Assembly (NCBI GenBank): GCA_045545665.1
Contig: JAZQBL010000013.1
Coordinates: 81,504-145,503, forward strand
DNA from: Eubacteriales bacterium
GTDB taxonomy: Bacteria > Bacillota > Clostridia > Oscillospirales > CAG-272
Direction of reading: 5' to 3'
DNA: 64,000 nucleotides
Made by a program: the position numbers and the translations under genes. The notes below the pieces were generated by a model. It was not told the origin of the DNA. It saw only the letters and a list, made by a program, of their open reading frames with translations, and did no database searches. Shown here one piece after another: positions 2,461 to 62,909 of this stretch; position 1 is the stretch's first letter; every line of letters begins with the position of its first letter.

Positions 2461-3279
2461 ATGTACAGTATAAGCGAATTCATTGACCGCGCTGTATCCC
2501 TCGAAACGACCATAAAGCTGTGCGACGAATTATTTTCGGAAATGAAAAACAGCTTTAGCAGGATCCCGGAGGAGCGCGAACCGAGACTCTCGGATTTTTC
2601 AAGAAAGACGTATTTTTACCGCATAGAGAGCTATAAATTCTCTATATTAGGAATAATCGCCGCTGTTATAATATCGACGGCGCTGTATTTTACAAGCGAT
2701 ATGTACGGCTTCGACCCGCAGATTCCCTGCCTTTTGGTGTTGCTGCTCGGAGCTTCCCTCGGGCTTATCGTTATGGCTTTCCGCAGAAACAAGGAAAAAT
2801 TGATGCAAAAACGTGCAATGACCCTGTACAAAAACGCGCTTGATGATTATTACGCAAAGCACAAGCTTGACACGTTTACGGCTTCAATGAGAAGCGCAAA
2901 TATTCTTTCGAGCTGCGAAAACAAACTGCTTGATCTCAAAAACGAGACTTTTGCGCTGTTGGGCAAAGCTTACGAAAAAGAAGCCGTGCCTATGAGAGCG
3001 AGAAACTTCAAGGTGATGTGCGCCGCACTCGTGCGCTCTTCAAAGGAAACGGAGCATCAAACGGTAAAGGACGTTTTAATGAAGCTTGACGAAAACGATT
3101 ACAAGCTTTCAAAATACGACTCGCTTTGCGAAAACGTAAAGAAAGTTACACAGCAGACGTGCTCGAATATGACCTCGGACGACCGCTATACGGAAATGGA
3201 AGAGGTTATAGACGACATAATTAAAAATTGTTCGGAGCAAAATGAAAAAATAAAATTATTTTTAAATCAAGAAAGGTAG
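2461..3279 (+). CDS. hypothetical membrane protein (two central TM helices)
   Basis: Start moved to the ATG at 2461, preceded by GGAGA (2451-2455). Hydrophobic stretches ILGIIAAVIISTALYF and LLVLLLGASLGLIVMAF. No family recognised. Ends 5 nt before the next gene. Confidence 0.55.
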   Translation: MYSISEFIDRAVSLETTIKLCDELFSEMKNSFSRIPEEREPRLSDFSRKTYFYRIESYKFSILGIIAAVIISTALYFTSDMYGFDPQIPCLLVLLLGASLGLIVMAFRRNKEKLMQKRAMTLYKNALDDYYAKHKLDTFTASMRSANILSSCENKLLDLKNETFALLGKAYEKEAVPMRARNFKVMCAALVRSSKETEHQTVKDVLMKLDENDYKLSKYDSLCENVKKVTQQTCSNMTSDDRYTEMEEVIDDIIKNCSEQNEKIKLFLNQER

Positions 3280-3284
3280 TACTT

Positions 3285-4514
3285 ATGAAAAATTTTTTTT
3301 CCAAAGCAACAGCCCTTTTGATCGTAGCAACACTCATTTTGTGTGCGTTGCCGCTTTCAGCATTCGCAGCAGATGCGAACTGCCCCATCATCTTCCTTCC
3401 CGGTGTAATGGGTAGCCGCCTGTACACGTCCGACAAAGTATTTAACGATTTCACACGCGTTTGGGATCCCTCGATCTTCTTCATCACAAACTTTGCCGAA
3501 CAGCTTAAGACAAAGACACTTTACGCAGCACCTCCCGTAAACGCAAATGACCCCGACGTTAAAAGAGAATACGGTACTTTAGACACTTATAAAAACATCA
3601 TAGACGCTCTTTGCGAAGCATTCCCCGAAAGAGAAGTTTACTTCTTCTCCTACGATTTCAGACAGAGCAACAAGGATTCTGCCGAAAAGCTCAACGCTTT
3701 CATTACAGAATCGGGATTTGACAAGGTCGATCTTATTTCCCACAGTATGGGCGGTCTTGTAGTTGCCAACTACGTTGATATGTTCGGTTTTGACTGTGTC
3801 AACAAGATGGTCTCCTGCGGAACACCTTACATGGGTTCAGCCCAGATGCTCAACATCGCGTTCGGTGAAGATCTTCTTGCTACAAAATACTCCGAAGGAA
3901 TCGAAGGAATACTCCTTCAGATAGCTGACTGCATCGTTTCCGGTCCTTTGGGAGTTGACAGAGAACTCCGCACGTCCCTCCGTGCATGTGCTGAGCTTCT
4001 TCCCTATCAGGCAAGTGTTAAACAAGAGCCGATGATGAAGTACATAGGCAACCAGTCAAGCCTTATCAAGCCGATATTCCTCTATATGCCCACAAGCCTT
4101 AATACGTATAAGACGCTCTGCAACGACCTTTTCGGTGAAGAAATGTACACCGAGGCTTCAGCGGTACAGAACAACCTGTACAAGAACGTATACGGCGATA
4201 TCCTCGCATACGACGGTGCATACTTCGTTGTAGGTGCTGAACAGTCAACGATCAAAACGATATTCTACAGCGGTGAGGGCGACAAGCTTAACGCTGACAG
4301 ACTCAAGCACACATCAGGTGACGACACCGTAACGTTTGAATCTGCAACGATGCTCGGAGCAATGCTTAAGATCGATTCATCACGTTACTGCGTACAGCCG
4401 ACAACACACGGCGGCACGGCAGGCAGTGAAAAGACGGAAGCTTCCGCACTTTGCATTGAATACGTAATAGACGTTCTTGCAGACGGCGTTTCCGACGTTT
4501 CATCCGCAGCATAA
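3285..4514 (+). CDS. secreted alpha/beta-hydrolase, lipase/LCAT-PGAP1-like
   Basis: Signal peptide ending ALPLSAFAADA. N-terminal PIIFLPGVMGSRL and nucleophile elbow SHSMGG, typical of class-2 lipase/LCAT-like esterases. Confidence 0.7.
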   Translation: MKNFFSKATALLIVATLILCALPLSAFAADANCPIIFLPGVMGSRLYTSDKVFNDFTRVWDPSIFFITNFAEQLKTKTLYAAPPVNANDPDVKREYGTLDTYKNIIDALCEAFPEREVYFFSYDFRQSNKDSAEKLNAFITESGFDKVDLISHSMGGLVVANYVDMFGFDCVNKMVSCGTPYMGSAQMLNIAFGEDLLATKYSEGIEGILLQIADCIVSGPLGVDRELRTSLRACAELLPYQASVKQEPMMKYIGNQSSLIKPIFLYMPTSLNTYKTLCNDLFGEEMYTEASAVQNNLYKNVYGDILAYDGAYFVVGAEQSTIKTIFYSGEGDKLNADRLKHTSGDDTVTFESATMLGAMLKIDSSRYCVQPTTHGGTAGSEKTEASALCIEYVIDVLADGVSDVSSAA

Positions 4515-4621: not shown

Positions 4622-4765
4622 TTGTTAGTGGGGCACTGCCCGACTGCATTTGTACATACAAATGCGATGCCGGTTCTAACACACTTTGCTTTTATATGTT
4701 AGAATAAAACTTCGCTAACACCATTACACTTTCCTCTGTCGGGGTATTTTCGGTATGATATTACG

Positions 4766-5182
4766 TTATTTTGTAAGTTCCGCAAGTGTTTTCTTCAAAA
4801 GCGTTGATGACGTACCCGTAGTATAAGGAAAGTAAATTATCTCAACGCCGAACGGTTTGAATTTTTCTTCAAGCTCGTTGAAAAGCGGTGAACCTTTCCA
4901 ATCGTCTCCGACGAACATACGGTCGAATTTATGCTCCTGCCAAGCGGCAAATTTATCTCTGTGGGTCTGAGGCACGACACGGTCCACGTATTTTATCGCT
5001 TCCACTATCTGTACTCTTTCCTCGTATGATATTACCGGAGTTTTGTTTTTATACTGCTTTACAAGCTCGTCCGTGCTCACACCGACGATAAGATAGTCGC
5101 ACATTTCCTTTGCCCTTTTTAAAATATTGAGATGTCCTATATGGAATAAGTCAAATACGCCTGTTGTGTAACCGATAACCAT
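4766..5182 (-). CDS. tagD: glycerol-3-phosphate cytidylyltransferase
   Basis: 138 aa. MVIGYTTGVFDLFHIGHLNILKRAK (HxGH cytidylyltransferase motif). Size and sequence are typical of TagD. Confidence 0.9.
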   Translation of the reverse strand: MVIGYTTGVFDLFHIGHLNILKRAKEMCDYLIVGVSTDELVKQYKNKTPVISYEERVQIVEAIKYVDRVVPQTHRDKFAAWQEHKFDRMFVGDDWKGSPLFNELEEKFKPFGVEIIYFPYTTGTSSTLLKKTLAELTK

Positions 5183-29920: not shown

Positions 29921-31756
29921 ATGAGTGAAGATGTAAAAAAAGGCGGTATATCCGTCGATATCGAACATATTTTCCCTATAATCAAAAAATGGCTCTATTC
30001 CGAGAAAGAAATATTTCTCCGTGAGATAGTATCAAACGCAACGGATGCCGTAACAAAGCTGAAAAGACTTTCTTCCCTCGGTGAAGCCGATTTCGGAGGC
30101 GAAGAATATAAAATAACCGTAACTCTCGACAAGGGTGAAGGAACGCTCACCGTTTCCGACAACGGTATCGGTATGACGAAGGACGAGCTTGAAAGATATC
30201 TCTGCCGCATCGCTCTGTCGGGTGCTGTTGAATTTATACAAAAGTATGAAAACTCCGAAAAGGATTCTTCAAGCGAGGGTATCATCGGTCATTTCGGGCT
30301 CGGATTTTATTCATCCTTTATGGTAAGTGACACGGTAACGGTTCAGACAAGATCGTATACCGGCTCTCCTGCTGTAAAATGGGTATGCACAAGCGACGGT
30401 GACTACGAAATATTCGACGGCGACCGTGAAGAACACGGAACGGACGTAATAATGAAAATAACCTCCGAGGAAGCGGAATATTTAAACGAAGGCAAAATAA
30501 GAGAAATACTTTCAAAGTACTGCTCGTTTATGCCCGTACCGATATATTTCGTCGTCGAGGGTGAAGAAAAAGAAGAAAACGAGCCTGTAAACGACCCCCA
30601 CCCCCTCTGGCAGAGATCCGCTTCGGAATGTACGGAAGAAGAATATAAGCAGTTCTACACAAAGGTGTTCAACGATTACAAAGAACCGCTTTTCCACATT
30701 CACATAAATGCCGATTATCCGCTTAATTTCAAGGGAATACTGTATTTTCCCAAGCTCAACCACGAATACGACTCTCTCGAAGGTCAGGTAAAGCTTTATT
30801 ACAATCAGGTATTCGTTGCGGATAATATAAAGGAAGTAATTCCCGAATATATGCTTATGCTCAAGGGCGTGCTTGACTGCCCCGAGCTTCCCTTGAACGT
30901 CTCAAGAAGCTATTTGCAAAACAGCGGTTACGTTTCAAAAATATCGGCTCACATCGTAAAGAAGGTTGCCGACAAGCTTAATTCGATGTTCAACACCGAA
31001 AGAGAGAGCTATGAAAAGCTCTGGGACGATCTCAAGACGTTCGTCGAATACAGCTCAATAAGAGATAAAAAGTTCCACGACAGGGTTAAAAAGTGCGTTA
31101 TTTTCAAGTCCGCAACGGAGGAAGGAAAGTACTACACGCTTGAAGAATATCTCAGCGAGGCAAAAGAAAAGCACGAAAACACCGTTTATTACGCAACGGA
31201 CGTAACGACGCAGGCACAGTATATTTCAATGTTCTCAAACGAGGGAATAAATATAATCCTCCTCGACCGTATACTTGACACGCAGTACATCCACACAGTT
31301 GAAACAGACAACACGGACGTAAAATTCGTAAGAATAGATGCGGACGTAGCCGCAGCTCTCAAAGGCGAGGGCGAGGCTGTGGAAAACGAGAGCATCACAG
31401 CCGTTTTCCGTAAGATAAGCGGCAAAGATGATCTTAAGGTCACCTACGAGTGCCTCAAAGACGAAAAGACTCCCGCGCTCATCAATATAAACGAGCAGTC
31501 ACGCCGTTTTGAAGATATGATGAGAATGTACAAAATGGACGGTATGCCCGATATGCCGTCAGATATGACGCTCATTGTAAACACGAACAGCTCGCTTATA
31601 GACAAGCTTGCGAAAGTCATAACGGAGGACGAAGAAAAAGCCGAAAAGCTTGCAAAGCAGATATATACTCTTTCCCTTATTGCACAGCGTCAGCTTACCG
31701 CAGAAGAGCTTAAACAGTTCCTCGACGAAAGCTTCGATATGCTTCTCAATATATAA
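29921..31756 (+). CDS. htpG: molecular chaperone HtpG (Hsp90)
   Basis: 611 aa. LYSEKEIFLREIVSNATDA, GIGMT and GHFGLGFYS motifs. Confidence 0.95.
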   Translation: MSEDVKKGGISVDIEHIFPIIKKWLYSEKEIFLREIVSNATDAVTKLKRLSSLGEADFGGEEYKITVTLDKGEGTLTVSDNGIGMTKDELERYLCRIALSGAVEFIQKYENSEKDSSSEGIIGHFGLGFYSSFMVSDTVTVQTRSYTGSPAVKWVCTSDGDYEIFDGDREEHGTDVIMKITSEEAEYLNEGKIREILSKYCSFMPVPIYFVVEGEEKEENEPVNDPHPLWQRSASECTEEEYKQFYTKVFNDYKEPLFHIHINADYPLNFKGILYFPKLNHEYDSLEGQVKLYYNQVFVADNIKEVIPEYMLMLKGVLDCPELPLNVSRSYLQNSGYVSKISAHIVKKVADKLNSMFNTERESYEKLWDDLKTFVEYSSIRDKKFHDRVKKCVIFKSATEEGKYYTLEEYLSEAKEKHENTVYYATDVTTQAQYISMFSNEGINIILLDRILDTQYIHTVETDNTDVKFVRIDADVAAALKGEGEAVENESITAVFRKISGKDDLKVTYECLKDEKTPALININEQSRRFEDMMRMYKMDGMPDMPSDMTLIVNTNSSLIDKLAKVITEDEEKAEKLAKQIYTLSLIAQRQLTAEELKQFLDESFDMLLNI

Positions 31757-31796: not shown

Positions 31797-31989
31797 CCTT
31801 ATATTCGGAAGGAGCATGCCCCTGTCCTGCCTAAAAACTCGTTATTTTATCGGCAGTGTTTTGCAAACTCAGGCAGTATCGGCTTTCGATGCCGAGTACG
31901 TATCGCTACGAAACAGATGCCGATAGAACCATGATCGTAATTCTTTATTCTTGTGTTTTTTCGGAAATTATTTTTCCGTATTCACTTTT

Positions 31990-33138
31990 TTATTTGTGTT
32001 CTGCTTTTGAAAATTTTTCATAAGCCAACTGCATAAGTGTGCGTTCCGTTTTGATATCGGCTTCGTAGGGATAGTTTTTTGCACATTTTTCAAATTGAGC
32101 CTTTATTTTCTCTGCTTTTTCTTCATCTTCATTACAAAGCAGTGCGTATGCGTACTCCGTTCTCATAACGGTCGGGTACGTTTTCATAGATTTCATAAAG
32201 TTTTTCTCCTCTTTTGTCAGAAAAGCATCAACTGCATCTTTTCTGTTTTCGGAAATAAGCTCTATATACAATCTGTCGCATATCATAAGATTTTTATGAA
32301 GACCTACTATACCGCTTTCCATTTCCAAAAGGCGCTTCATAAGGGCATCCGCTTCTTCAAAGCGGTGCTGCTCCGTATAGCGGTTTGAAGCAAAAACAGC
32401 GATGGGGGCTATCATTACATTTTTCATCTGCTCGTCTGTGGGAACTGTGAAAAACTCATCGGGCATATCCTTCAGGGCAACGCCGTCCGATGAAAGTGAG
32501 CTCATCATAAGCTGCAGCCAAAATCCGCGCAGGGCGTCTTTATCACGTCCAAGACTTAAAGCGTTATATCCGTCGTTTGGCACAAGCGTTCCTTTAAGCG
32601 GTATACCGTTTGCAAGCGCAAAGCCTATACCGATCACCGTTAAATACAGAAAAAACGGCGACAAAAACTCAATATGCGGCATAAAAAGATAGAGGCAAAG
32701 CGACACGGCGGAAAGTATAAGGTTTAAAAAAGCTCCGCCGTAATTGTATATAAAAACGGGTATTTTACCGTCTTTCATTTCAGGCGGTGTCATAAGGCAC
32801 TGTCCGCCCATACCTGCTACATTTTGACGGCAAAATCTTATTTTTCCGTTCGTTTTCAGAATAACGAAGCCGAAAACATTGAACGATTTGAATTTATATC
32901 CCGACAAAAGACCGAAAACGAGGTGTCCTGCTTCGTGTACTATCAACTGCACAGTCAAGGCAAGATACATAACGGCTAAAAGCAGTATGAATTTTATAAA
33001 CGAATCTTTTGCCGAAAGTCCTTCCGTTTCGGAAGCCATAAGCTCACCGCACACGGCAAAAGCTATGATATAGATGAAACCGAGCAAAATATCAGCAATT
33101 TTACCCTTCTTTTTTTGTTTTTCTTTTTTCATTTCCAA
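31990..33138 (-). CDS. site-2 protease-like (M50) membrane metalloprotease with helical C-terminal domain
   Basis: HEAGHLVFG (HExxH) in a TM helix and NGIPLKGTLVPNDG (NxxPxxxxDG). 382 aa. Confidence 0.7.
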   Translation of the reverse strand: MEMKKEKQKKKGKIADILLGFIYIIAFAVCGELMASETEGLSAKDSFIKFILLLAVMYLALTVQLIVHEAGHLVFGLLSGYKFKSFNVFGFVILKTNGKIRFCRQNVAGMGGQCLMTPPEMKDGKIPVFIYNYGGAFLNLILSAVSLCLYLFMPHIEFLSPFFLYLTVIGIGFALANGIPLKGTLVPNDGYNALSLGRDKDALRGFWLQLMMSSLSSDGVALKDMPDEFFTVPTDEQMKNVMIAPIAVFASNRYTEQHRFEEADALMKRLLEMESGIVGLHKNLMICDRLYIELISENRKDAVDAFLTKEEKNFMKSMKTYPTVMRTEYAYALLCNEDEEKAEKIKAQFEKCAKNYPYEADIKTERTLMQLAYEKFSKAEHK

Positions 33139-41996: not shown

Positions 41997-43850
41997 ATGA
42001 TAAAACCGCAGTTTTCGTTTTTATATGACGGCAAGCCTTACGACCCAGAGGTAAACAAGGATATAAAAACAACGCTTGAAGTAAAAAAATACGACGAATT
42101 TGACGCTGTTGAATGGACCGTCTGGTACGAAAACGTATCCGACAAAAACAGTGGCACGCTTTCCGAAATAAAGGATATCGACGCCGTGCTCACGTTGCCC
42201 GAATACGTTCACGAATTTATGGGCAACAGATACACGGAGGAAGCGCCGAAGGTCATCTGGACGCAGGGACTCGTTGAAGGTGAAGCGTATTCGTACGACG
42301 ATGCACGTTCTGCCGAGGAATTTTCATATCATACGAAATATTTCTTCAACAAGGGCGTTACTTACAGCTTTGAAAACGGTGAGGGCAGATGCTCTGACGA
42401 GGTTATGCCGTTTTTCGAGGTTGCTTGCAAAGACGCAGGTTACATCGTTGCACTCGGTTGGACGGGAAGCTGGATAGCAACGCTTTCAAAGGAAGATGAA
42501 GGCATCCGCTTCAAGGCAGGTCTTCACTATGCGGAATATTATCTCAAGCCCGGCGAAAAGGTAAGAGGTGCGTCCGTTCTCGTTATGCAGTATTCCGAAA
42601 AGGACGATCAGTACAACAAATTCCGTGATCTTATGTGGCAGCAGTACACGCCCAAATGTCTTACGAAGGAAAACCCCGGTCTTCTTGCAAACCTTTTCTG
42701 GGGAAGCCTTCCCAGCGACGAGATGATAAACCGCATAAAGCGTTTCCGCGAAAACGGCGTTGAGTTTGATCAGTACTGGATAGATGCGGCTTGGAACGGC
42801 AAAAAGGCAAAGAGTGACTGCAACTTTGACAGCATCTGGGCTGACGAAGTCGGTGACTGGGAAGTAAAGCTTGATGCTCACCCCGATAAATTTCTTGACG
42901 TCGTTGCCGAAGCGAAAAAGAGCAACGCGGGCTTTATGCTTTGGTTTGACACGGAAAAGGTGGCGAAAGTCGCACCGATAGCATCCGAGCATCCCGAATA
43001 TTTCATAGACGCGGGCGAAAGCTATCTGCTTGCAAACTTCGCAAAGAAAGAAGTAAGAGATTATTATTACAACATACTCAGAGAGCACATAAAAACACTT
43101 GATATCCGTTGCTACAGACAGGACTTCAACTGCACACCCGATATTTTCTGGAAAGCGGCTGACGAAGAAGGCAGACGCGGTATTACGGAAATATACCACA
43201 TTCTCGGTATGTACGAGCTGTGGGATAAGCTCATTGCAGAATTCCCCCACCTTATAATCGACAACTGTGCATCGGGCGGAAGAAGAATAGATATAGAAAC
43301 CCTGAAGCGTTCGCTTATGCTTTACAAAACGGACTATCAGTGCATATTCAACCCCAACCCCGACGTAACGAACGTACACAACACAAACGCATCCCGTCTT
43401 TTCCCCGTTACGGGCTGTTCAACGAAAAAGAAAATGGATACGTATGCGGCAAGAAGCACGTATTCGGCAACGTGGGGCATAGGCTCGTATGCAACTATCT
43501 TCCACTCTATGACGGATGAAGAAATGAAATGGCTTTCGGGTGTCGTTAAAGAATTCAGATCAATCCGCAGATTCTTCCCCTGCCATTTCCACAACTTCGG
43601 CTCTGACAGCCTCGACCTTACCTCGTGGGTGATCTGGCAGTACCACGACGTTGAAACAAACGAAGGAATGATTATGGCATTCAGACGTGAAAAATCTCCC
43701 TGCTGTACGGCAAAAATATCCCTTAAAGAGCTTGACGGCGAATACACCTTCACAAGCCTTGACACGGGCGCATCATTTGTCGGCGGCGCAGATCTTACGA
43801 TAGAACTTCCCGAACAGTATTCCTCAACTATCATTACGTACAAGAAATAA
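41997..43850 (+). CDS. glycoside hydrolase family 36-like (alpha-galactosidase-type)
   Basis: YWIDAAW, CYRQDFN and IDNCASGGRRID motifs resemble the GH36 catalytic core. Start at the second ATG (41997). Confidence 0.7.
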   Translation: MIKPQFSFLYDGKPYDPEVNKDIKTTLEVKKYDEFDAVEWTVWYENVSDKNSGTLSEIKDIDAVLTLPEYVHEFMGNRYTEEAPKVIWTQGLVEGEAYSYDDARSAEEFSYHTKYFFNKGVTYSFENGEGRCSDEVMPFFEVACKDAGYIVALGWTGSWIATLSKEDEGIRFKAGLHYAEYYLKPGEKVRGASVLVMQYSEKDDQYNKFRDLMWQQYTPKCLTKENPGLLANLFWGSLPSDEMINRIKRFRENGVEFDQYWIDAAWNGKKAKSDCNFDSIWADEVGDWEVKLDAHPDKFLDVVAEAKKSNAGFMLWFDTEKVAKVAPIASEHPEYFIDAGESYLLANFAKKEVRDYYYNILREHIKTLDIRCYRQDFNCTPDIFWKAADEEGRRGITEIYHILGMYELWDKLIAEFPHLIIDNCASGGRRIDIETLKRSLMLYKTDYQCIFNPNPDVTNVHNTNASRLFPVTGCSTKKKMDTYAARSTYSATWGIGSYATIFHSMTDEEMKWLSGVVKEFRSIRRFFPCHFHNFGSDSLDLTSWVIWQYHDVETNEGMIMAFRREKSPCCTAKISLKELDGEYTFTSLDTGASFVGGADLTIELPEQYSSTIITYKK

Positions 43851-43860
43851 TCAAATAATA

Positions 43861-43895
43861 AAGTGGCAGGCTCAATTCTTTGAGCCTGCCACTTT
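43861..43895. terminator. hairpin between the convergent GH36 and XRE genes
   Basis: aagtggcaggctca-attctt-tgagcctgccactt (14-bp stem). Confidence 0.65.
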
Positions 43896-43946
43896 GCTAT
43901 TCGCTAAATTGGAATTTGTCGATTCACTTCTACCTGGCAATAATCG

Positions 43947-44456
43947 TTATTTTTTCTTCCATATTAGGTAAATACCTACAATCGCTCCAATAAAAGCAAC
44001 TGGAGATAACCTTACAAAAAACCACTCAAATGCATGAAGAAGAACTCCGACAACGGCTATTTCAGGGTCACTGTAGTCCCACGCTAAATATGGGCTACCA
44101 AAAATAATTAAGAGCATCCAAACCGCTATTATGGCAACTGCTAATAGGCTAAAGAACACTGTTAACTTTTTTCGCTTTGCGTTTCTACTCAGAGCAAGTT
44201 GCAAATTGATGATTTCCAATTTTTCAGAAATCACCTTTAAGTCATTTACTTCTGTCTGTTCAACAATTTCTCCAAGCAAAACACTTACAGGTGTGTCGAG
44301 TGCTTCTGATAAAGAAATCAACATATCAGAGTCTGGTACCGACAAGCCTTGCTCCCATTTTGAAATTGTTTGGCGAACCACATTTAACTTGACAGCAAGT
44401 TCTTCTTGGGATAATCCTTTTGATTTTCGGACTGCCCTTATGTTTTCACTCAACAT
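43947..44456 (-). CDS. XRE-family HTH regulator with C-terminal TM helices (AT-rich gene)
   Basis: NIRAVRKSKGLSQEELAVKLNVVRQTISKWEQG HTH, followed by three hydrophobic helices. Start at MLSENIR after AAGGAGG. Confidence 0.8.
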   Translation of the reverse strand: MLSENIRAVRKSKGLSQEELAVKLNVVRQTISKWEQGLSVPDSDMLISLSEALDTPVSVLLGEIVEQTEVNDLKVISEKLEIINLQLALSRNAKRKKLTVFFSLLAVAIIAVWMLLIIFGSPYLAWDYSDPEIAVVGVLLHAFEWFFVRLSPVAFIGAIVGIYLIWKKK

Positions 44457-44642
44457 GAGGAATACCTCCTTTCTTTTAGTAGTCACCTGTATTATATCAA
44501 AGTGTACCCGTTGCTACAAGCAACGGGTATTAACATTTAGGTTTGCAACTGAAATTAACAGACCATCAAATTCTTATTTATCGTTCTATTTATAGCCGGT
44601 TTAGCCTTTGTATTACAAAGACACGGGGCAAAGCCTGTATTT

Positions 44643-45141
44643 CTATTCTTCTGAGTATAGTTCATCATAGTACCAACGTATAGGATTTTCATATATGTAC
44701 TTCACGATCTCCTCATAGTCCTCTCGACCTCTGATAATATGATCGTGAAAGCCTCGTTGCCATACGTTTTCACCGTATTCTTTATTGCAAAATCTTTTAA
44801 ATGTCGATACAAAATGTGACACAAATGAGGTCTGTTTTGTAGGGGTCGACGTCCTCGGCGACCCGTCATCGCGAACGAATAACAAAAAATGTATATGGTT
44901 CGGCATAATAACGTATTGATCTACGGTTATATTTTAATAAAATTCATTCATTTGTTTTATATGTTTATCCGCAACGATTCCGTGCGGTAATAATTCCATG
45001 TTTTTCTACAATACGGGATAAGATCTGCCGCCTGCCTTCCGTACACAGCGTTATAAAATACGCTCCCGTTGTGTTATAATCAAAATTTTTTAACCTTGTA
45101 GGCTTCCTTTTCGGTAATTCTTTTTCTTTATCCACATTCAT
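44643..45141 (-). pseudogene. RAYT-type (REP-associated, IS200-like HUH/Y1) transposase, disrupted
   Basis: N-terminal part reads MNVDKEKELPKRKPTRLKNFDYNTTGAYFITLCT... The C-terminal part, in another frame, reads ...PHGIVADKHIKQMNEFY*NITVDQYVIMPNHIHFLL...VWQRGFHDHIIRGREDY...YIYENPIRW. Lesions: one frameshift (about 44965-45000) and an in-frame TAA at 44934-44936. Confidence 0.8.
44838..44864 (+). repeat. TGTAG + GC-rich hairpin (REP-like unit) inside the RAYT coding sequence
   Basis: tgtag-gggtcg-acgtcctcgg-cgaccc. Related units at 54196-54221 (opposite orientation) and 62176-62202. Confidence 0.6.
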
Positions 45142-45151
45142 CACCCGTTCT

Positions 45152-45192
45152 ATTGTATCAAAAATCGGCAGAGAAAACAAGTTCTCTGCCGA
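45152..45192 (-). promoter_or_regulatory. RAYT promoter: 11-bp-arm palindrome + extended -10
   Basis: tcggcagagaa-aacaag-ttctctgccga (45165-45192). On the minus strand it is followed by ttttTGATACAAT (45152-45160). Confidence 0.55.
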
Positions 45193-45253
45193 AATTTTAT
45201 GCCCCTGCCATTTCTTCTGTCGAGAATGCAGAAAGAATGAGCGGATTTTTTAT

Positions 45254-46126
45254 TTATTGCGTATTGTTGTTGGAAAATACGTCTGCCACTTCGCTTATCG
45301 TAATGTAGGCGTGGTGGTCGATATCGTGGACAAGCTCCTTCATTCTTACGACCTGGTAACGGTTGACGATAAAATATATCATCGTCTTATCTCTGTTTGA
45401 ATAACCGCCCTTTGCATTGAGGTACGTAACGCCGCTGCCGAAGGTTTCCGTCAGCTTTTCACAGACCTCTTTCGGTTTTTCGGTAATGATAATGGCGCAT
45501 TTTGCCCTGTCTATACCGTCAACGATAAAGTCAACGGCTTTAAGTGCCGCCGTATACGCAACGATCGAATAAAGCGGCAGCACCCAGCTTTTGAGTATAA
45601 TCCCGCAAGCTATGTAAAGCACCACGTTATATATCATAACGAACGTGCCGACCGTTATACCGAGTCTTTTTGCAAAGATTACCGCCATAACTTCAACACC
45701 GTCCATAGCGCCGCCGTAGCGTATTGCAAGACCGCTTCCGATACCCGATATCACACCGCCGAACAAGGCGCACAATAGCAGATCCTCGCCCGCAAACGGA
45801 GATGCAACGCTTACGTCAACGGGTAAAACGTCCGTGATGATCCACGATGAAATTGAGTAGATGAACACGGTATATATAGCGTACACCGTAAATTGCCATC
45901 CCTGTCTTTTAAGTCCGAACAAAAACAGAGGAATATTAAGCAGGATCAAAAATACGGAAAGTGTCAGATATTCGGGTGTCAGACGGTCCAAAAGCATAGA
46001 CGTACCTGAAATTCCGCTGTCGTACAAGTTTACCGGCATCAGAAATACCGTTATACCGAAGGCATTTACTATACCTGCAACTGTCAGCATCAAAATATTC
46101 GTAAGCTTCAACTTTCTTTCTCTCAC
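45254..46126 (-). CDS. YitT family membrane protein (DUF2179 C-terminal domain)
   Basis: 290 aa with 5-6 TM helices. C-terminal domain AIIITEKPKEVCEKL...GVTYLNAKGGYS is typical of YitT. Confidence 0.78.
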   Translation of the reverse strand: MRERKLKLTNILMLTVAGIVNAFGITVFLMPVNLYDSGISGTSMLLDRLTPEYLTLSVFLILLNIPLFLFGLKRQGWQFTVYAIYTVFIYSISSWIITDVLPVDVSVASPFAGEDLLLCALFGGVISGIGSGLAIRYGGAMDGVEVMAVIFAKRLGITVGTFVMIYNVVLYIACGIILKSWVLPLYSIVAYTAALKAVDFIVDGIDRAKCAIIITEKPKEVCEKLTETFGSGVTYLNAKGGYSNRDKTMIYFIVNRYQVVRMKELVHDIDHHAYITISEVADVFSNNNTQ

Positions 46127-46150
46127 TCCTGATCCTCCGTAAATATTTTA

Positions 46151-47587
46151 TTAAACGTATTCAAGCTCCGTAAAATCCTTTATGCAAAGTATTGCATCGG
46201 GATGTTTTATTCCGCTTATGGCTACGACCTTCATACCTGCGTTGAGTGCGGCGTTTATTCCCGCTATAGAATCCTCAAACACGACACATTCGGAAGGATC
46301 AAAGCCGCAAAGCTTAGCCACCAGCAAAAACAGGTCGGGCGCAGGCTTTTTGGCAAGCGGTAAAGAACCGTCGCATATGACCTTGAAATACTTATCAAGC
46401 GAAAGATCCTTTGCTATTTTCGGCGCAAATATGCTTGATGAGCCGACACCGCACGGCACGCATCTGTCGTTTGCATAATTTAAGAAAGGTACGATACCGC
46501 CGACGATATCGTCTTCTGAAAGATCTTTCGTTATTTCAACGTACGTGTTTTCTTTCGTATCACCGACGTTTTTTCTGTCATCGTCGGTGAGTGTCATTTC
46601 CGACTTTTCGGCAATATAGTTTACGATATAGTCACGGCCCGTGCTTTTCAAGGGCAGATATTCTTCATCGCCTATATGAACGCCGTACGGCTCGCCGCCT
46701 TTATTCCAAGCTATAAGATGGTATTTTTCCGTATCTACAACGACGCCGTCAAAGTCAAAAATACAGCACTTGAAGTCATGAAGAATACCGTTTTTATCCT
46801 TTATGCGGACACGTTTTTTATAGCTTTCTTCAACAAGACGTGCAATCTCAAGGTTTGCCGAAGCGACAACGCCCTCGTCGCCGAAGGAATATTCCTCCCC
46901 CTCGAGGTTCGTTATGACAGCCCCCGCCTCTTTACATATGATAACGCCGGGAGCTATATCCCAAAGGTTTCTCGTTATAACGACCGTACAGTCCGTTTTG
47001 CCCATTGCGGCATATGCAAAATCAAAGCAAGCCGCGCCGAACATTCTTATTTTAGCTATTTTGGGGTACAAAAAGCCCATTGAATCGTGCTGCCTTTTTG
47101 CAACGGCATCATCCATATGAGAATAGTCGCCCATGCTTGCTATGACGTTGTTCAACGTAACCGTTGAGTTTACGTGTATTTTTTCACCGTTTCTGTACGC
47201 TCCGCAGTCCTTTTCGGCATAAAACAGCTCGTTAGTATGCGGCAGATAGATCACACCCAGAACAGGCTCTTTATCAACGAACAAAGCACATTGGACACCG
47301 TGCAGACACACGTTTCTTGCCATATTGCACGTGCCGTCTATAGGGTCTATCACCCAGACTCTGCCCGCAAGTTCCTGAGTCGATGACGTTTCCTCTCCGT
47401 GTATTCTGTCGCCTTCGTATTTTTTAAGTATTTCCTCCGAAAGATACTTTTCGATGCTTATGTCGATGTTCGTCACAAGATCGAACTGCGATTTCTGCAT
47501 CACCGTTTCAGCACCGTTCGATGCGTATTTTTCATACGCCGAGCGTATCTTTTCGGTTATAAATTCAAGTTCGCCCGTGTATTTCAT
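46151..47587 (-). CDS. fusion protein: inositol-monophosphatase-family domain + HAD-IA (beta-phosphoglucomutase-like) phosphatase domain
   Basis: N-terminal half has WVIDPIDGTCNM (IMPase motif). C-terminal half has CIFDFDGVVVDTE and FEDSIAGINAALNAGM (HAD motifs I and IV). The ATG at 47585-47587 lies 1 nt after the trpB stop. Confidence 0.78.
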   Translation of the reverse strand: MKYTGELEFITEKIRSAYEKYASNGAETVMQKSQFDLVTNIDISIEKYLSEEILKKYEGDRIHGEETSSTQELAGRVWVIDPIDGTCNMARNVCLHGVQCALFVDKEPVLGVIYLPHTNELFYAEKDCGAYRNGEKIHVNSTVTLNNVIASMGDYSHMDDAVAKRQHDSMGFLYPKIAKIRMFGAACFDFAYAAMGKTDCTVVITRNLWDIAPGVIICKEAGAVITNLEGEEYSFGDEGVVASANLEIARLVEESYKKRVRIKDKNGILHDFKCCIFDFDGVVVDTEKYHLIAWNKGGEPYGVHIGDEEYLPLKSTGRDYIVNYIAEKSEMTLTDDDRKNVGDTKENTYVEITKDLSEDDIVGGIVPFLNYANDRCVPCGVGSSSIFAPKIAKDLSLDKYFKVICDGSLPLAKKPAPDLFLLVAKLCGFDPSECVVFEDSIAGINAALNAGMKVVAISGIKHPDAILCIKDFTELEYV

Positions 47588-48933: not shown

Positions 48934-49197
48934 ACAAAAAAATTCCTGTCCGAAATAGGACAAGAATGACTTCCTGCGGTACCACCTAAATTAACGAAAA
49001 AATTCGTTCCCTCTGCCGTACACCGTTATGTACGCACCCTTTTAACGGTAGGTTACCGTCAGCCATTACTCACGTTAGTTTTCCTGCTGCCCTCATAAGC
49101 CCATTCGTCAACCGTTTCGCTGCGGCATTTCACCACACTGCCGCTCTCTGAAAGCTACGCTGACTGACTACTATTCTTAATCAAAGGTTTCAACTAT
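48934..49197 (-). promoter_or_regulatory. T-box leader, probable Trp (UGG) specifier
   Basis: Minus strand has an AGAGA box, a distal-loop GUGUGGUGAAA, cgaaUGGgcuu (UGG at 49101-49103) and AAUUUAGGUGGUACCGCAGG (48973-48992). Terminator cuuguccu/ggacagga + U7. Confidence 0.85.
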
Positions 49198-60766: not shown

Positions 60767-62119
60767 ATGGCATTTTTTACTAAAGAAAGATCTTTTTATA
60801 AGACGTTTATATCTCTTTGGGGCGTTCTTGTTTTAAACAACGTCATCGTCCTCGGAGTAAACCTTGCCGACAACATTATGCTCGGCGCATACAGCGAGCC
60901 TGCCTTATCGGGGGCAGCCGCATGTAATCAGCTTCAATTTATATTTCAGCAGGTGATATTCGGTCTCGGTAACACCGCCGTGCTTTTAGGCAGTCAGTAC
61001 TGGGGAGAAAAAAAGCTGAAGCCTATAAAAAATATAGCCGCATCGGCTCTTATTTGCGGTGTGCTGTTTTCGCTTGTACTGTTTATATTGACGTCCGCTT
61101 TTCCGTATCAGACGGTCGGAATATTCACGAAATCAGAGGTCATAAAGCAGCAGGGTGTCGAATATCTTTCCGTAATAAAGTACACGTATCCCGTATTTGC
61201 CGTAACGAACATACTGCTTGCCTGCCTGCGCTCGGTTGAAAGCGTGAAGATAGGCTTCCGTGTTTCCGTTATGACTCTTATCGTCAACATCTCGCTCAAC
61301 TACGTGCTCATTTTCGGAAAGCTCGGGTTTGAGCCTATGGGTGCAAAAGGTGCGGCAACAGCGACGCTCATTTCAAGAATTGCCGAGCTTTTGTTCGTCG
61401 TCATCCACATAATGTTCATAGAAAAGAACCTGAGGCTGTCCTTTGGCGATATGGTAAAGACAGACCTGTCGTTGTTTAAAAAATATGCGCTGTCGTCCGT
61501 GCCGTTCGTGCTTACCGACGGACTTTTCGGCGTTTCCACCGCTTTACAGACCGTTATTCTCGGTCATATGTCAGATGCGGCAATAGCGGCAAATTCCGTA
61601 TCAACAACGCTTTACCAGGTGTTGAAGGTTGCGGCGATAGGCTCGTCCGCCGCCTCCGCCGTCATAATCGGCAAAAGCATCGGACAAGGCAAAAGCCTTG
61701 ATAAGATAAAGGAATATTCAAGGTCACTGCAGGTCATATACGTCGGTGTCGGACTTGCCACGTCCGTTTTGCTTTTCTTACTCCGCACACCGATAATAAG
61801 CCTTTACAATATTTCAAGCGAGGCTGTAAGCCTTGCCGACGGATTTTTACTCGTTCTGTGCGTAACGTGCATCGGTACGGCATATCAGATGCCGACGAAC
61901 ACGGGTATCGTGCGCGGCGGCGGAGATTCGAAATTCGTATTGAAGCTCGATATCGTCGCCATCTGGTGCATAGTTTTACCTCTTTCGTTCTGTGCGGCAT
62001 TCCGCTGGCACTGGCATCCCATCGCCGTAATTGCGTGCCTTAACGCCGACCAGGTGTTCAAGTGCCTGCCCGTTTTCATCAAAGCAAACAGCTATAATTG
62101 GGTAAAAAAGCTTACTTGA
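60767..62119 (+). CDS. MATE family efflux transporter
   Basis: 450 aa with 12 predicted TM helices. Typical MATE N-terminus (LWGVLVLNNVIVLGVNLADNIMLG). Confidence 0.85.
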   Translation: MAFFTKERSFYKTFISLWGVLVLNNVIVLGVNLADNIMLGAYSEPALSGAAACNQLQFIFQQVIFGLGNTAVLLGSQYWGEKKLKPIKNIAASALICGVLFSLVLFILTSAFPYQTVGIFTKSEVIKQQGVEYLSVIKYTYPVFAVTNILLACLRSVESVKIGFRVSVMTLIVNISLNYVLIFGKLGFEPMGAKGAATATLISRIAELLFVVIHIMFIEKNLRLSFGDMVKTDLSLFKKYALSSVPFVLTDGLFGVSTALQTVILGHMSDAAIAANSVSTTLYQVLKVAAIGSSAASAVIIGKSIGQGKSLDKIKEYSRSLQVIYVGVGLATSVLLFLLRTPIISLYNISSEAVSLADGFLLVLCVTCIGTAYQMPTNTGIVRGGGDSKFVLKLDIVAIWCIVLPLSFCAAFRWHWHPIAVIACLNADQVFKCLPVFIKANSYNWVKKLT

Positions 62120-62175
62120 CAAGATAAAAAAGCAAGAATAAAGCGGACTTCTCATAAGGAAGTTTAATTTCTCCT

Positions 62176-62202
62176 TGTAGGGACAGGCGTCCTCGACTGT
62201 CC
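62176..62202 (+). repeat. REP-like unit (TGTAG + hairpin with a compensated stem)
   Basis: tgtag-ggacag-gcgtcctcga-ctgtcc. Same loop core and flanking TGTAG as 44838-44864, but a different, fully complementary stem. Confidence 0.55.
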
Positions 62203-62239
62203 GTTAAGATATATTTGCGCCGCAGAATACAAAGAGTAT

Positions 62240-62268
62240 CCCGGACAGATTTTCAAGGTCTGTCCGGG
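62240..62268. terminator. hairpin between the convergent MATE gene and the 62.3-kb gene
   Basis: Perfect 10-bp stem cccggacaga / tctgtccggg with a 9-nt loop. Weak T-tracts on both sides. Confidence 0.5.
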
Positions 62269-62300
62269 TTCTCATATCATTAAAAAGCCAAAACACGATA

Positions 62301-62909
62301 TCATTGGTTTGTGTTGATAATATTTGCAATCTCTGATATCAAATGTTCTTTTGAGGTCAACACGCCCTTAACTGCAAATTTCTTTTTGTTAATTATTACA
62401 ATAGTGCAATTCGTCTGAAATTTTAATACAATTCTTTTGGTTTTGTTTCTGCAAACGGCTCGAAATTTTCCATAAAACTTTCCACCGCCTATAAAAATGT
62501 ACCCCGTTACTTCTTTCTTTGTATAACGGGTTAACTGATCGAAAAATTCAGCATAACTACCAAGGAATATATCATGTAATACAGAACAATATACGCTATT
62601 TTTGCAGTAGGTCAAATAGAGAAATTCAATCTTTAAAATAGAGAAATCTGTGATATATGATTGTAACAAAAAGCAAAGGATTGCAATTGGTATAGCAACC
62701 CATAATTCACGTTCAAAGCACATGGGAATCCAACATAACAACAAAATCAAATACTGGAATATAATAAATATTTTGCGTCCAAACTTTGATGTAAGACCTT
62801 GTCCTTTGCGCCACGCTTCTTCACGTTCTTTTTTGCCCCAAATTATCTTGTCAGAAAAAAAGCGATTTGTTCTATTATAGTATTCGATATAAAAATCTTT
62901 TCTTTGCAT
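62301..62909 (-). CDS. hypothetical membrane protein, AT-rich orphan gene
   Basis: 202 aa. AGGAGGA RBS. Two TM helices (IFIIFQYLILLLCWIPMCF and WVAIPIAILCFLLQSYI). No family recognised. Sits directly downstream of the gene-less RAYT-element derivative. Confidence 0.5.
   Translation of the reverse strand: MQRKDFYIEYYNRTNRFFSDKIIWGKKEREEAWRKGQGLTSKFGRKIFIIFQYLILLLCWIPMCFERELWVAIPIAILCFLLQSYITDFSILKIEFLYLTYCKNSVYCSVLHDIFLGSYAEFFDQLTRYTKKEVTGYIFIGGGKFYGKFRAVCRNKTKRIVLKFQTNCTIVIINKKKFAVKGVLTSKEHLISEIANIINTNQ

Follow-up and report, generated by a model that had tools for sequence, protein, structure and literature searches.

Among described systems, the closest to the one considered here is that of Escherichia coli, namely the REP-associated tyrosine transposase (RAYT) known as RayT or TnpA_REP (gene yafM; PDB 4ER8) and its REPtron (Ton-Hoang et al. 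2012, PMC3333891; Messing et al. 2012, PMC3479197). E. coli TnpA_REP needs both the GTAG tag and a mismatch in the stem of a repetitive extragenic palindromic (REP) sequence to bind and cleave it, and its cleavage site is CC/TAC, the slash marking the cut (PMC3333891). REPs, and the REP doublets known as REPINs, are reported to flank RAYT genes (Nunvar 2010; Bertels 2011 and 2017; Ton-Hoang 2012; Messing 2012; Di Nocera 2013; Quentin 2018), and RAYTs of Group 1 are widely distributed, including in Clostridia (Bertels, Gallie and Rainey 2017, PMC5581495). Here we describe a RAYT-type gene in a 64,000-nucleotide (nt) stretch of DNA from a gut Eubacteriales bacterium (contig JAZQBL010000013.1, positions 81,504 to 145,503), which we call the window, together with its intact relatives in other Clostridia. 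Our main reading, to which we assign a probability of roughly 85%, is that the window holds a unit of about 636 nt with a decayed Y1/HUH gene of the RAYT kind, and that the intact relatives of this gene bear two in-frame REPs that are kept at the DNA level, most likely as cis sites. To our knowledge, how RAYTs recognize REPs, how the two stay matched over the long term and what RAYTs do in the cell are open questions that have been studied almost only in Proteobacteria. The large clostridial clade represents a natural data set of matched enzyme-hairpin pairs, and it offers the testable hypothesis of a cis-acting or autoregulatory hairpin within a gene.

The clostridial genes resemble the E. 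coli system in several respects. Their product is, like TnpA_REP, a Y1/HUH protein; the two are similar in size, and each has an HUH motif and a single catalytic tyrosine. Their hairpins, like E. coli REPs, are GTAG-tagged imperfect palindromes with a mismatch in the stem, and, as in E. coli, inverted REPs flank the gene in some relatives. Judging from genomes that are mostly incomplete, the gene may also be typically present once per genome. However, none of the REPs of the E. coli K-12 locus (L205 in our set of loci) is inside rayT (4638-5135), which they surround at 4459, 5201 and 5302, whereas the clostridial genes hold two further REPs in frame. The clostridial proteins are about 21% identical to TnpA_REP and score just under the NCBIfam cut-off for RAYTs, the module of hairpin and promoter at the 5' end of the clostridial unit and the block at its 3' end have no described counterpart in the E. 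coli system, and the window copy, unlike E. coli rayT, is a pseudogene. The clade shows a variant REPtron architecture, with its own REPs in frame on both sides of the HUH motif.

Two further comparisons help to place this architecture. REP doublets, triplets and clusters spaced 41-240 nt apart in metagenome loci recall REPINs, but REPINs are extragenic doublets that flank RAYT genes (PMC5581495), whereas the clostridial doublet lies inside the RAYT coding sequence and is translated. In-frame, translated palindromic repeats in functional proteins are known from the Rickettsia palindromic elements (RPEs) and from the REPs of Xanthomonas recB (Di Nocera et al. 2013, PMC3733652). Those repeats occupy unrelated host genes, whereas the clostridial host gene encodes an enzyme that, judging from homology, probably acts on the repeat itself. 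Also unlike RPEs and recB REPs, the clostridial insertion sites are fixed across the whole family, and the hairpin type varies by genome and tends to match that of nearby extragenic REPs. We found no mention of REPs inside a RAYT gene in the open-access RAYT/REP literature, a prior description beyond open-access text being possible, and text searches with 16-17-mers found no open-access paper containing these REP sequences.

A decayed RAYT gene and its intact relatives

The first-pass annotation of the window had taken two minus-strand open reading frames (ORFs), 44965-45180 and 44643-44906, for halves of one RAYT-type gene. Both ORFs are present, they join into one Y1/HUH protein, and the motifs GAYFITLCT, MPNHIHFLL, VWQRGFHDHIIRGREDY and YIYENPIRW are all found in them. 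The repaired protein scores 30.5 bits on the Y1_Tnp hidden Markov model PF01797, which has a gathering score of 23, while the C-terminal half alone reaches 19.8 bits and does not pass. The top NCBIfam model for the repaired protein is NF047646 (REP_Tyr_transpos), with 72.5 bits, compared to 19 bits for the NCBIfam IS200 model. The assignment to the RAYT type agrees with the closest models and structures, but the NF047646 score is short of the curated cut-off of 80 bits. Five intact relatives score 71.2, 72.6, 73.8, 71.2 and 80.8 bits on the same model. Because NF047646 is the best model by a wide margin and yet its equivalog cut-off is mostly not reached, we regard the family as a divergent clade.

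Searching a collection of 5.8 billion proteins returned more than 4,300 homologs of the repaired protein, the top one with E = 1e-100. The closest homologs are intact proteins of 171-173 residues that are up to 93% identical in the alignment; one of them is encoded at the orthologous locus, and one cluster member carries the Joint Genome Institute (JGI) name "REP element-mobilizing transposase RayT". The sole PDB sequence match of an intact relative is E. coli TnpA_REP (4ER8). Likewise, all 28 PDB matches at E <= 1e-3 of an AlphaFold2 model of the intact relative P0002 (mean confidence, pLDDT, 74) are IS200/IS605 TnpA or TnpA_REP structures, and the best TM-score, 0.53, is with 4ER8. In the protein alignment, the HUH motif (H-I-H) and the tyrosine of KYIYENP are invariant across the family, and this catalytic tyrosine aligns with Y115 of E. 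coli TnpA_REP.

These comparisons bear on whether the unit is instead a decayed autonomous insertion sequence (IS) of the IS200 type (TnpA-only, IS200/IS605 family) and not a domesticated RAYT, which we consider improbable. IS200 belongs to the same superfamily, the Y1_Tnp fold is common to both kinds, and the unit, with its conserved 5' and 3' non-coding blocks, adjoins different genes in different genomes. In addition, the left end of IS200 is reported to be a hairpin that doubles as a terminator (Beuzon et al. 1999), and the terminator-like hairpin upstream of the clostridial gene recalls it. However, the protein scores far lower on the IS200 model than on the RAYT model, the PDB sequence search gives TnpA_REP only, and no tnpB-like ORF is adjacent. 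Unlike IS200, the unit does not occur in multiple identical copies: in our scan of genomes there was usually one copy per genome, with no near-identical repeats of the whole unit, and no second full copy is found within the 64-kb window. The repeat that is dispersed is a 26-nt GTAG hairpin and not the gene unit.

The proposal that the gene has decayed was borne out by DNA and protein alignments, which reveal two independent lesions relative to intact relatives, each of which alone prevents a full-length product. The first is a TAA codon (44934-44936) that sits, as described before, in the C-terminal frame inside the segment KQMNEFY-stop-NITVDQYVIMPNHIH. The second accounts for the two halves being in different frames. 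The frame does change, but the cause is an exact 23-nt deletion and not a small frameshift. For this comparison, window DNA was aligned with three intact loci: L003, which shares the downstream HTH_3 gene with the window and is therefore taken as the orthologous locus, and L001 and L002, which lie in other contexts. Where the relatives read ATT GTA GGG GTC GAC GTC CTC GGC GAC CCG AAA AAC, that is, GTA-GGGGTCGACGTCCTCGGCGACCC-GAAAAAC, the window reads ATT GTA G AA AAA C. The deletion comprises a 22-nt hairpin plus one G, it shifts the frame, and it leaves the protein alignment without GVDVLGDP. Since the HUH motif and the tyrosine both lie downstream of the lesions, neither is expressed in a full-length protein. 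The copy departs further from the family consensus in its start codon (ATG to GTG) and in its -10 box (TATAAT to TACAAT); the start codon homologous to that of the relatives is the GTG at 45135, and there is an in-frame ATG at 45141. The window copy itself is an ordinary RAYT-family pseudogene and, judging from these lesions, is non-functional in this genome.

It is very improbable, in our estimation, that the deletion and the stop codon are artifacts of assembly or sequencing and that the gene is intact in the organism. Palindromes can be troublesome for some sequencing chemistries, and the exact 87-residue C-terminal product is on record from one contig only, which provides no independent confirmation. 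However, an artifact is unlikely to have produced two independent lesions of different kinds. One is a clean loss of 23 nt and the other is a G-to-T or A-to-T substitution, neither lies within a homopolymer, and the altered start codon and -10 box are additional small departures from the consensus.

REP hairpins inside the coding sequence

The sequence missing from the window, GGGGTCGACGTCCTCGGCGACCC, together with the GTA that precedes it, makes up what we call arm 1, which is the reverse complement of a surviving sequence at 44839-44864, GTAGGGGTCGACGTCCTCGGCGACCC on the plus strand, which we call arm 2. The intact genes therefore carry a 26-nt inverted repeat within their coding sequence. 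The GTAG of arm 2 reads on the plus strand, so that its orientation is opposite to that of the gene. The codons of this arm specify GSPRTSTP(T), a loop that comes right after the HUH strand, and as single-stranded DNA it folds into a hairpin of -9.9 kcal/mol that has the proposed structure. The first-pass annotation overlooked these true REPs, each a GTAG followed by an imperfect hairpin, which comprise arm 2, the deleted arm 1 and an extragenic copy at 62177-62202.

Relatives were collected by scanning one genome per species, from which 80 loci were kept. These come from about 77 genomes, most of them incomplete metagenome-assembled genomes (MAGs); all are Clostridia MAGs (Oscillospiraceae, Acutalibacteraceae, Lachnospiraceae, Eubacteriales or similar), many of animal-gut origin. 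Both arms are present in the same register in 69 genes, arm 1 after the ILSRIV codons and arm 2 after the HUH strand. The two arms, in frame and inverted relative to each other, lie on either side of the HUH motif, and each encodes a loop on the surface of the protein. In the P0002 model, the loop of arm 1 (residues 44-52) connects strands 2 and 3, and that of arm 2 (residues 97-107) connects the HUH strand to the helix that follows; the arm 2 loop corresponds to a 9-residue insertion relative to 4ER8, which appears as a gap in the alignment. Each 26-nt arm has the same layout, in which the GTAG tag is followed by an imperfect hairpin made up of a 6-bp variable stem, a purine-purine mismatch and a CG-TCCY-CG core. 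The 6-bp stem is the same in both arms of 53 genes, yet it differs between genomes, with GGGTCG, GGGGCG, GGACAG, GGACCG, GGGACG, GGGCCG, GGCGCG, GGGCGG, GGACGG, GGTGCG and GGGATG among the at least about 15 stem or hairpin types observed across the clade. Relatives and paralogs that are 36-50% identical have quite different hairpins at the same two sites, for example GTAGGGGCGATTCACGAATCGCCC, GTAGGGCGGGGGCTTGCTCCCGCC and GTAGGGGAGGGATCTCCCCTCCC.

A pair of 26-nt inverted repeats that lie 183-273 nt apart and are identical in 53 of 69 genes could also be read as pairing with each other, in RNA or in DNA, to form a single long-range stem, or as bounding a segment with the HUH motif that can be inverted or excised. 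We find this scarcely credible. In the 16 genes whose arms differ, 60 of 64 local hairpin pairs are kept, compared to 10 of 32 arm-to-arm pairs, and no inverted or excised segment is seen among about 86 genes. Because the differences between arms keep the local pairs, the conserved structure is each local hairpin and not a long-range stem. Covariation among 52 distinct arms agrees with the local hairpin: changes on both sides of a pair occur in five of eight pairs (73 cells), and none of 500 shuffles gave a value as high. Shifting the 3' partners by one to three columns lowers the fraction of paired cells from 99% to 21-49%, the 99% figure being inflated, as the covariation is not, by a pre-filter that kept arms with at least 7 of 8 pairs. 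The GTAG is invariant in these 52 arms, and in 50 of them the two positions next to the inner CG pairs are not complementary.

Conservation by codon position distinguishes a constraint on the DNA from one on the peptide. Conservation at third codon positions is 0.84 for arm codons versus 0.53 elsewhere (p = 1e-8), while amino-acid conservation is equal, at 0.69 for arm codons and 0.68 elsewhere. Because the wobble position is conserved at equal amino-acid conservation, the constraint acts on the DNA and not on the peptide. It is direct evidence for maintenance of the intragenic hairpins as DNA, and not for the sake of the peptide that they encode. For annotation, this means that the REP-encoded peptides VGxDVLxxP and GSPRTSTPT reflect a DNA-level constraint and are not protein motifs.

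The arms are also visibly unstable. In-frame tandem copies are found in L006 (3127/3184), L028 (3127/3160) and L038 (about 3304-3470), with further arrays in L155 and L146; the arrays have periods such as 33 or 57 nt, and the encoded loop is lengthened. L078 has a second hairpin nested within arm 1, an extra G shifts the frame in L063, and L030 has a broken arm 2 plus a stop codon. Arm 1 is absent from L073 and both arms are absent from L074, with the frames open in both genes. The deletion in the window is one more event of this kind, here out of frame, and the embedded-REP architecture explains why the window copy suffered an inactivating deletion. As hot spots for frameshifts and in-frame expansion, the hairpins are likely sites of pseudogenization. 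As for the mechanism, the deletion shows a 1-nt G microhomology, and loss of the hairpin by replication slippage across the palindrome is the explanation that we prefer. Aberrant RAYT cleavage at a CC/TAC-type site is possible but less likely, since only one boundary of the deletion (CCCC/TAC, bottom strand) resembles the E. coli site and the second boundary does not.

Dispersed REPs and the proposed role of the intragenic hairpins

The 26-mers are GTAG-class REPs, dispersed and mainly extragenic. The extragenic copy in the window has a stem of the ACAG type. The orthologous gene of L003 has the same 26-mer on its upstream side, and copies are scattered through metagenomes, where a scan for exact matches to this 26-mer found at least 120 stretches, of which 80 loci were analyzed. 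In these 80 metagenome loci, 99 of 120 REP copies do not lie in a RAYT gene, 71 of them lying outside long open frames as well; 20 copies are within 60 nt of contig ends, as is typical of dispersed repeats, and 12 of the 80 loci encode a RAYT. Flanking REPs accompany the RAYT genes of L004, L015, L025, L029, L035, L038 and L051, and they form inverted pairs in L004, L015 and L038. In L004, for instance, flanking REPs at 2910 (+) and 3755 (-) surround arms at 3133 (+) and 3301 (-). In 17 of 30 cases, a flanking REP has the same stem as an arm of the gene beside it, where 10.6 ± 2.3 such cases would be expected; this match is significant but moderate, and the metagenome scan, being specific for the ACAG type, biases it.

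By homology with E. coli TnpA_REP, the intact clostridial protein would bind GTAG-tagged single-stranded REP hairpins and cut and rejoin single-stranded DNA, and such cutting and rejoining would maintain or spread the dispersed REP family. Given this presumed activity, the role that we favor for the intragenic hairpins is one in cis, in which they would serve as sites for the gene's own product. Binding of the product to its own gene, on the single-stranded non-template strand or the lagging-strand template, could result in autoregulation, and the cis sites may also keep the gene's hairpins matched to the genomic REPs. A bolder form of this proposal is a self-referential coupling, in which the intragenic hairpins are the enzyme's own recognition sites and at the same time encode two of its surface loops. 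We regard this stronger form as speculative and rather unlikely. If it were true, a swap of hairpin type, such as is seen between genomes, would alter the cis site and the protein together, autoregulation and co-evolution of RAYT/REP specificity would be possible, and the intragenic pair might be the master copy of the genomic REP family.

Alternatively, the arms could be neutral passengers, that is, old in-frame REP insertions in tolerant loops that are refreshed by recombination or conversion with genomic REPs and have no cis function. This is possible, although we doubt it. The arms do lie in loops of lower model confidence, in-frame palindromic repeats are known in other genes (the RPEs and recB REPs mentioned above), and the arms are dynamic, as illustrated by the tandem copies of L006, L028 and L038, the nested hairpin of L078 and the open frames of L073 and L074. 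However, over the whole span of protein identity, from 93% to 36%, both arms keep their two positions, also where the hairpin sequence has been wholly replaced. Moreover, where the arms of a gene have come to differ from one another and from REPs nearby, double changes preserve the hairpin of each, as in L003, and the inverted pair always brackets the HUH motif, which is unexpected under random insertion.

Several points weigh against the main reading. The repaired window protein (72.5 bits) and four of the five intact relatives fall below the 80-bit cut-off of NF047646, and the arms used for covariation had been pre-filtered as stated. The hairpins could persist by repeated conversion from genomic REPs instead of through a selected cis function. 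The extragenic REPs found nearby in the window and in the closest relatives, L003, L001 and L146, are of the ACAG type, whereas the gene itself has arms of the GTCG type. Finally, the 64-kb window contains a single extragenic REP, which lies 17 kb from the gene.

Conserved ends of the unit and other features

The features of the window copy and the extragenic REP are collected in Table 1. The conserved unit extends over about 44565-45200 on the minus strand and, in other genomes, has different genes for neighbors. From 5' to 3', it is made up of a terminator-like hairpin with a -10 box and a Shine-Dalgarno sequence, a 171-codon gene and a non-coding block.

Table 1. Positions of the features discussed in the text, in window coordinates.
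Feature	Coordinates	Strand	Basis or remarks
N-terminal coding part (MNVDKEKELPKRKPTRLKNFDYNTTGAYFITLCTEGRRQILSRIV)	45007-45141	-	Translation and homolog alignment; tblastn 45135-45007
Middle coding part (KNMELLPHGIVADKHIKQMNEFY), out of frame with the N-terminal part	44937-45005	-	
C-terminal coding part	44643-44933	-	HUH codons 44889-44897; Tyr codon TAC 44697-44699; stop codon TAG 44643-44645
Intragenic REP arm 2, intact (GTAGGGGTCGACGTCCTCGGCGACCC)	44839-44864	+	No other exact match in the window; position shared by 69 related genes
GTAG remnant of intragenic REP arm 1 (45006-45009) with deletion junction (45005-45007)	45005-45009	-	Alignment with L003 and with L001/L002
Nonsense codon TAA	44934-44936	-	GAA (Glu) or AAA (Lys) in relatives; context FY(E/K)NITV
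5' hairpin TCGGCAGAGAA-CTTGTT-TTCTCTGCCGA, A/T tracts on both sides	45165-45192	-	Terminator-like on both strands
Extended -10-like box TGATACAAT	45152-45160	-	TGTTATAAT (TGnTATAAT) in relatives; upstream-region alignment
3' non-coding block GGCTTTGCCC-N5-CTTTGTAATACAAAGGC-TAAACCGGCTATAAA...GAACGATAAATAAGAATTTGA, about 78 nt	44565-44642	-	Holds the 44604-44635 motif
Weak hairpin TTCTTTCTG-CATTCTCGA-CAGAAGAAA, contains AGAATGCAGA	45211-45241	-	Site of the upstream REP in L003, L004, L015, L021 and L038
Extragenic REP, ACAG stem type (GTAGGGACAGGCGTCCTCGACTGTCC)	62177-62202	+	Convergent gap between MatE gene 60767-62119 (+) and ORF 62301-62909 (-)

The palindromes on either side of the gene had been proposed to be the recognizable ends of an element. 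We confirmed the 11 pairs of the 5' palindrome at 45165-45192, the sequence AGAATGCAGA at 45223-45232 and the motif GCCTTTGTATTACAAAG...GCAAAGCC at 44604-44635. Both palindromes are real and conserved and bound the block of about 636 nt, but they are not of the REP type and nothing shows them to be transposition ends. As single-stranded DNA, the 5' hairpin has a folding energy of -11.7 kcal/mol (z = -7). The 5' module that begins with this hairpin, AAATTTCGGCAGAG..TTGTTT..CTCTGCCGATTTGTGTTATAATG..GGGTGATG, is kept in at least 22 loci, including genes that are 47-50% identical, and compensatory changes in the stem of the hairpin are seen in L008, L021, L023 and L028. The -35 position (TTGTTT) falls in the hairpin loop. 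From its sequence, the module would combine an insulating terminator with an extended -10 promoter and a Shine-Dalgarno sequence; a consensus promoter scan did not flag TTGTTT-17-TACAAT as a sigma-70 promoter, and the promoter part is inferred from the extended -10 box, which relatives conserve.

On the 3' side, the non-coding block follows the stop codon in about 17 loci that have different downstream genes. We rejected it as a candidate structured RNA or DNA, the consensus fold being weak, at -4.2 kcal/mol, with one double-change pair only and the single-sequence fold not being significant. Upstream of the 5' hairpin, the weak hairpin at 45211-45241 has a loop that resembles the REP core (GCGTCCTCGAC). 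It is without GTAG, and its alignment with L003 has an 11-nt gap across the GTAG and the 5' stem. The alignment speaks for a decayed REP, but this identity is uncertain, since the fold lacks significance and L026 and L027 have similar sequences, which point to an element of a different kind. Rfam searches of 43800-46200 (E <= 1) and of the whole window (gathering scores) turned up nothing of relevance; the only matches are a borderline tRNA and a T-box leader, the latter at 48953-49193 on the minus strand (RF00230, 129 bits) and unrelated to the RAYT finding. Between the RAYT unit and the HTH_3/XRE-type gene (43947-44486, minus strand) there is a perfect palindrome with 11-bp arms, TACCCGTTGCT-TGT-AGCAACGGGTA, at 44505-44529. 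It sits just upstream of a TATAAT-like box and may be an operator for the HTH_3/XRE-type regulator.

The extragenic REP at 62177-62202 is embedded in a longer composite repeat (62107-62290), which may be an element resembling miniature inverted-repeat transposable elements (MITEs). Its 5' flank is CTTCTCATAAGGAAGTTTAATTTCTCCTT, and its 3' flank, G..AAGATATATTTGCGCCGCAGAA..CAAAGAG..CCCGGACAGATTTTCAAGGTCTGTCCGGG, closes with a terminator-like hairpin. Near-identical flanks surround the same REP in many metagenome loci, among them L087, L096, L152, L169, L176, L184, L191, L192, L201 and L203, and the 5' flank TTCTCATAAGGAWGTTT also precedes the REP upstream of the RAYT genes of L003, L015, L021 and L143. 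Elsewhere, different GTAG/CTAC hairpin families (examples are GGGAGGATAATATCCTCCCCTAC, GGACGACCATTGGTCGCCCCTAC and GGGAGGAGCAAGCCCCTCCCCTAC) are mixed within a few hundred nucleotides, in clusters that resemble bacterial interspersed mosaic elements (BIMEs); these are found in L153, L189, L199, L200, L095, L104 and L148. A recurrent terminator-like hairpin, CCCCGACAGA-N-TCTGTCGGGG, is located 3' of the RAYT genes of L012, L024, L040, L066, L071 and L080 and, in the window, at about 62254-62282. It follows many unrelated genes in these genomes and may be another dispersed repeat family.

The 80 loci include a few divergent or tandem RAYT paralogs, the genes otherwise being mostly single in each genome. 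Within the window, a putative and much more decayed relic that resembles the RAYT N-terminus (RKNTRIKNYDHGSIGICFVAIRTRHRKPIL...) is found at 31874-31963 on the minus strand, between an HtpG-like ORF (29921-31756, named by sequence only) and the ORF 31990-33138; the tblastn match is weak, with 50% identity over 30 residues and E = 1e-4. Tandem divergent paralogs occur in L055 (1903-2412/3001-3504), L081 (2486-2956/3001-3483) and L082 (3-464/3001-3498). These paralogs are 36-50% identical to P0002, and each has its own intragenic hairpin pair, of different types.

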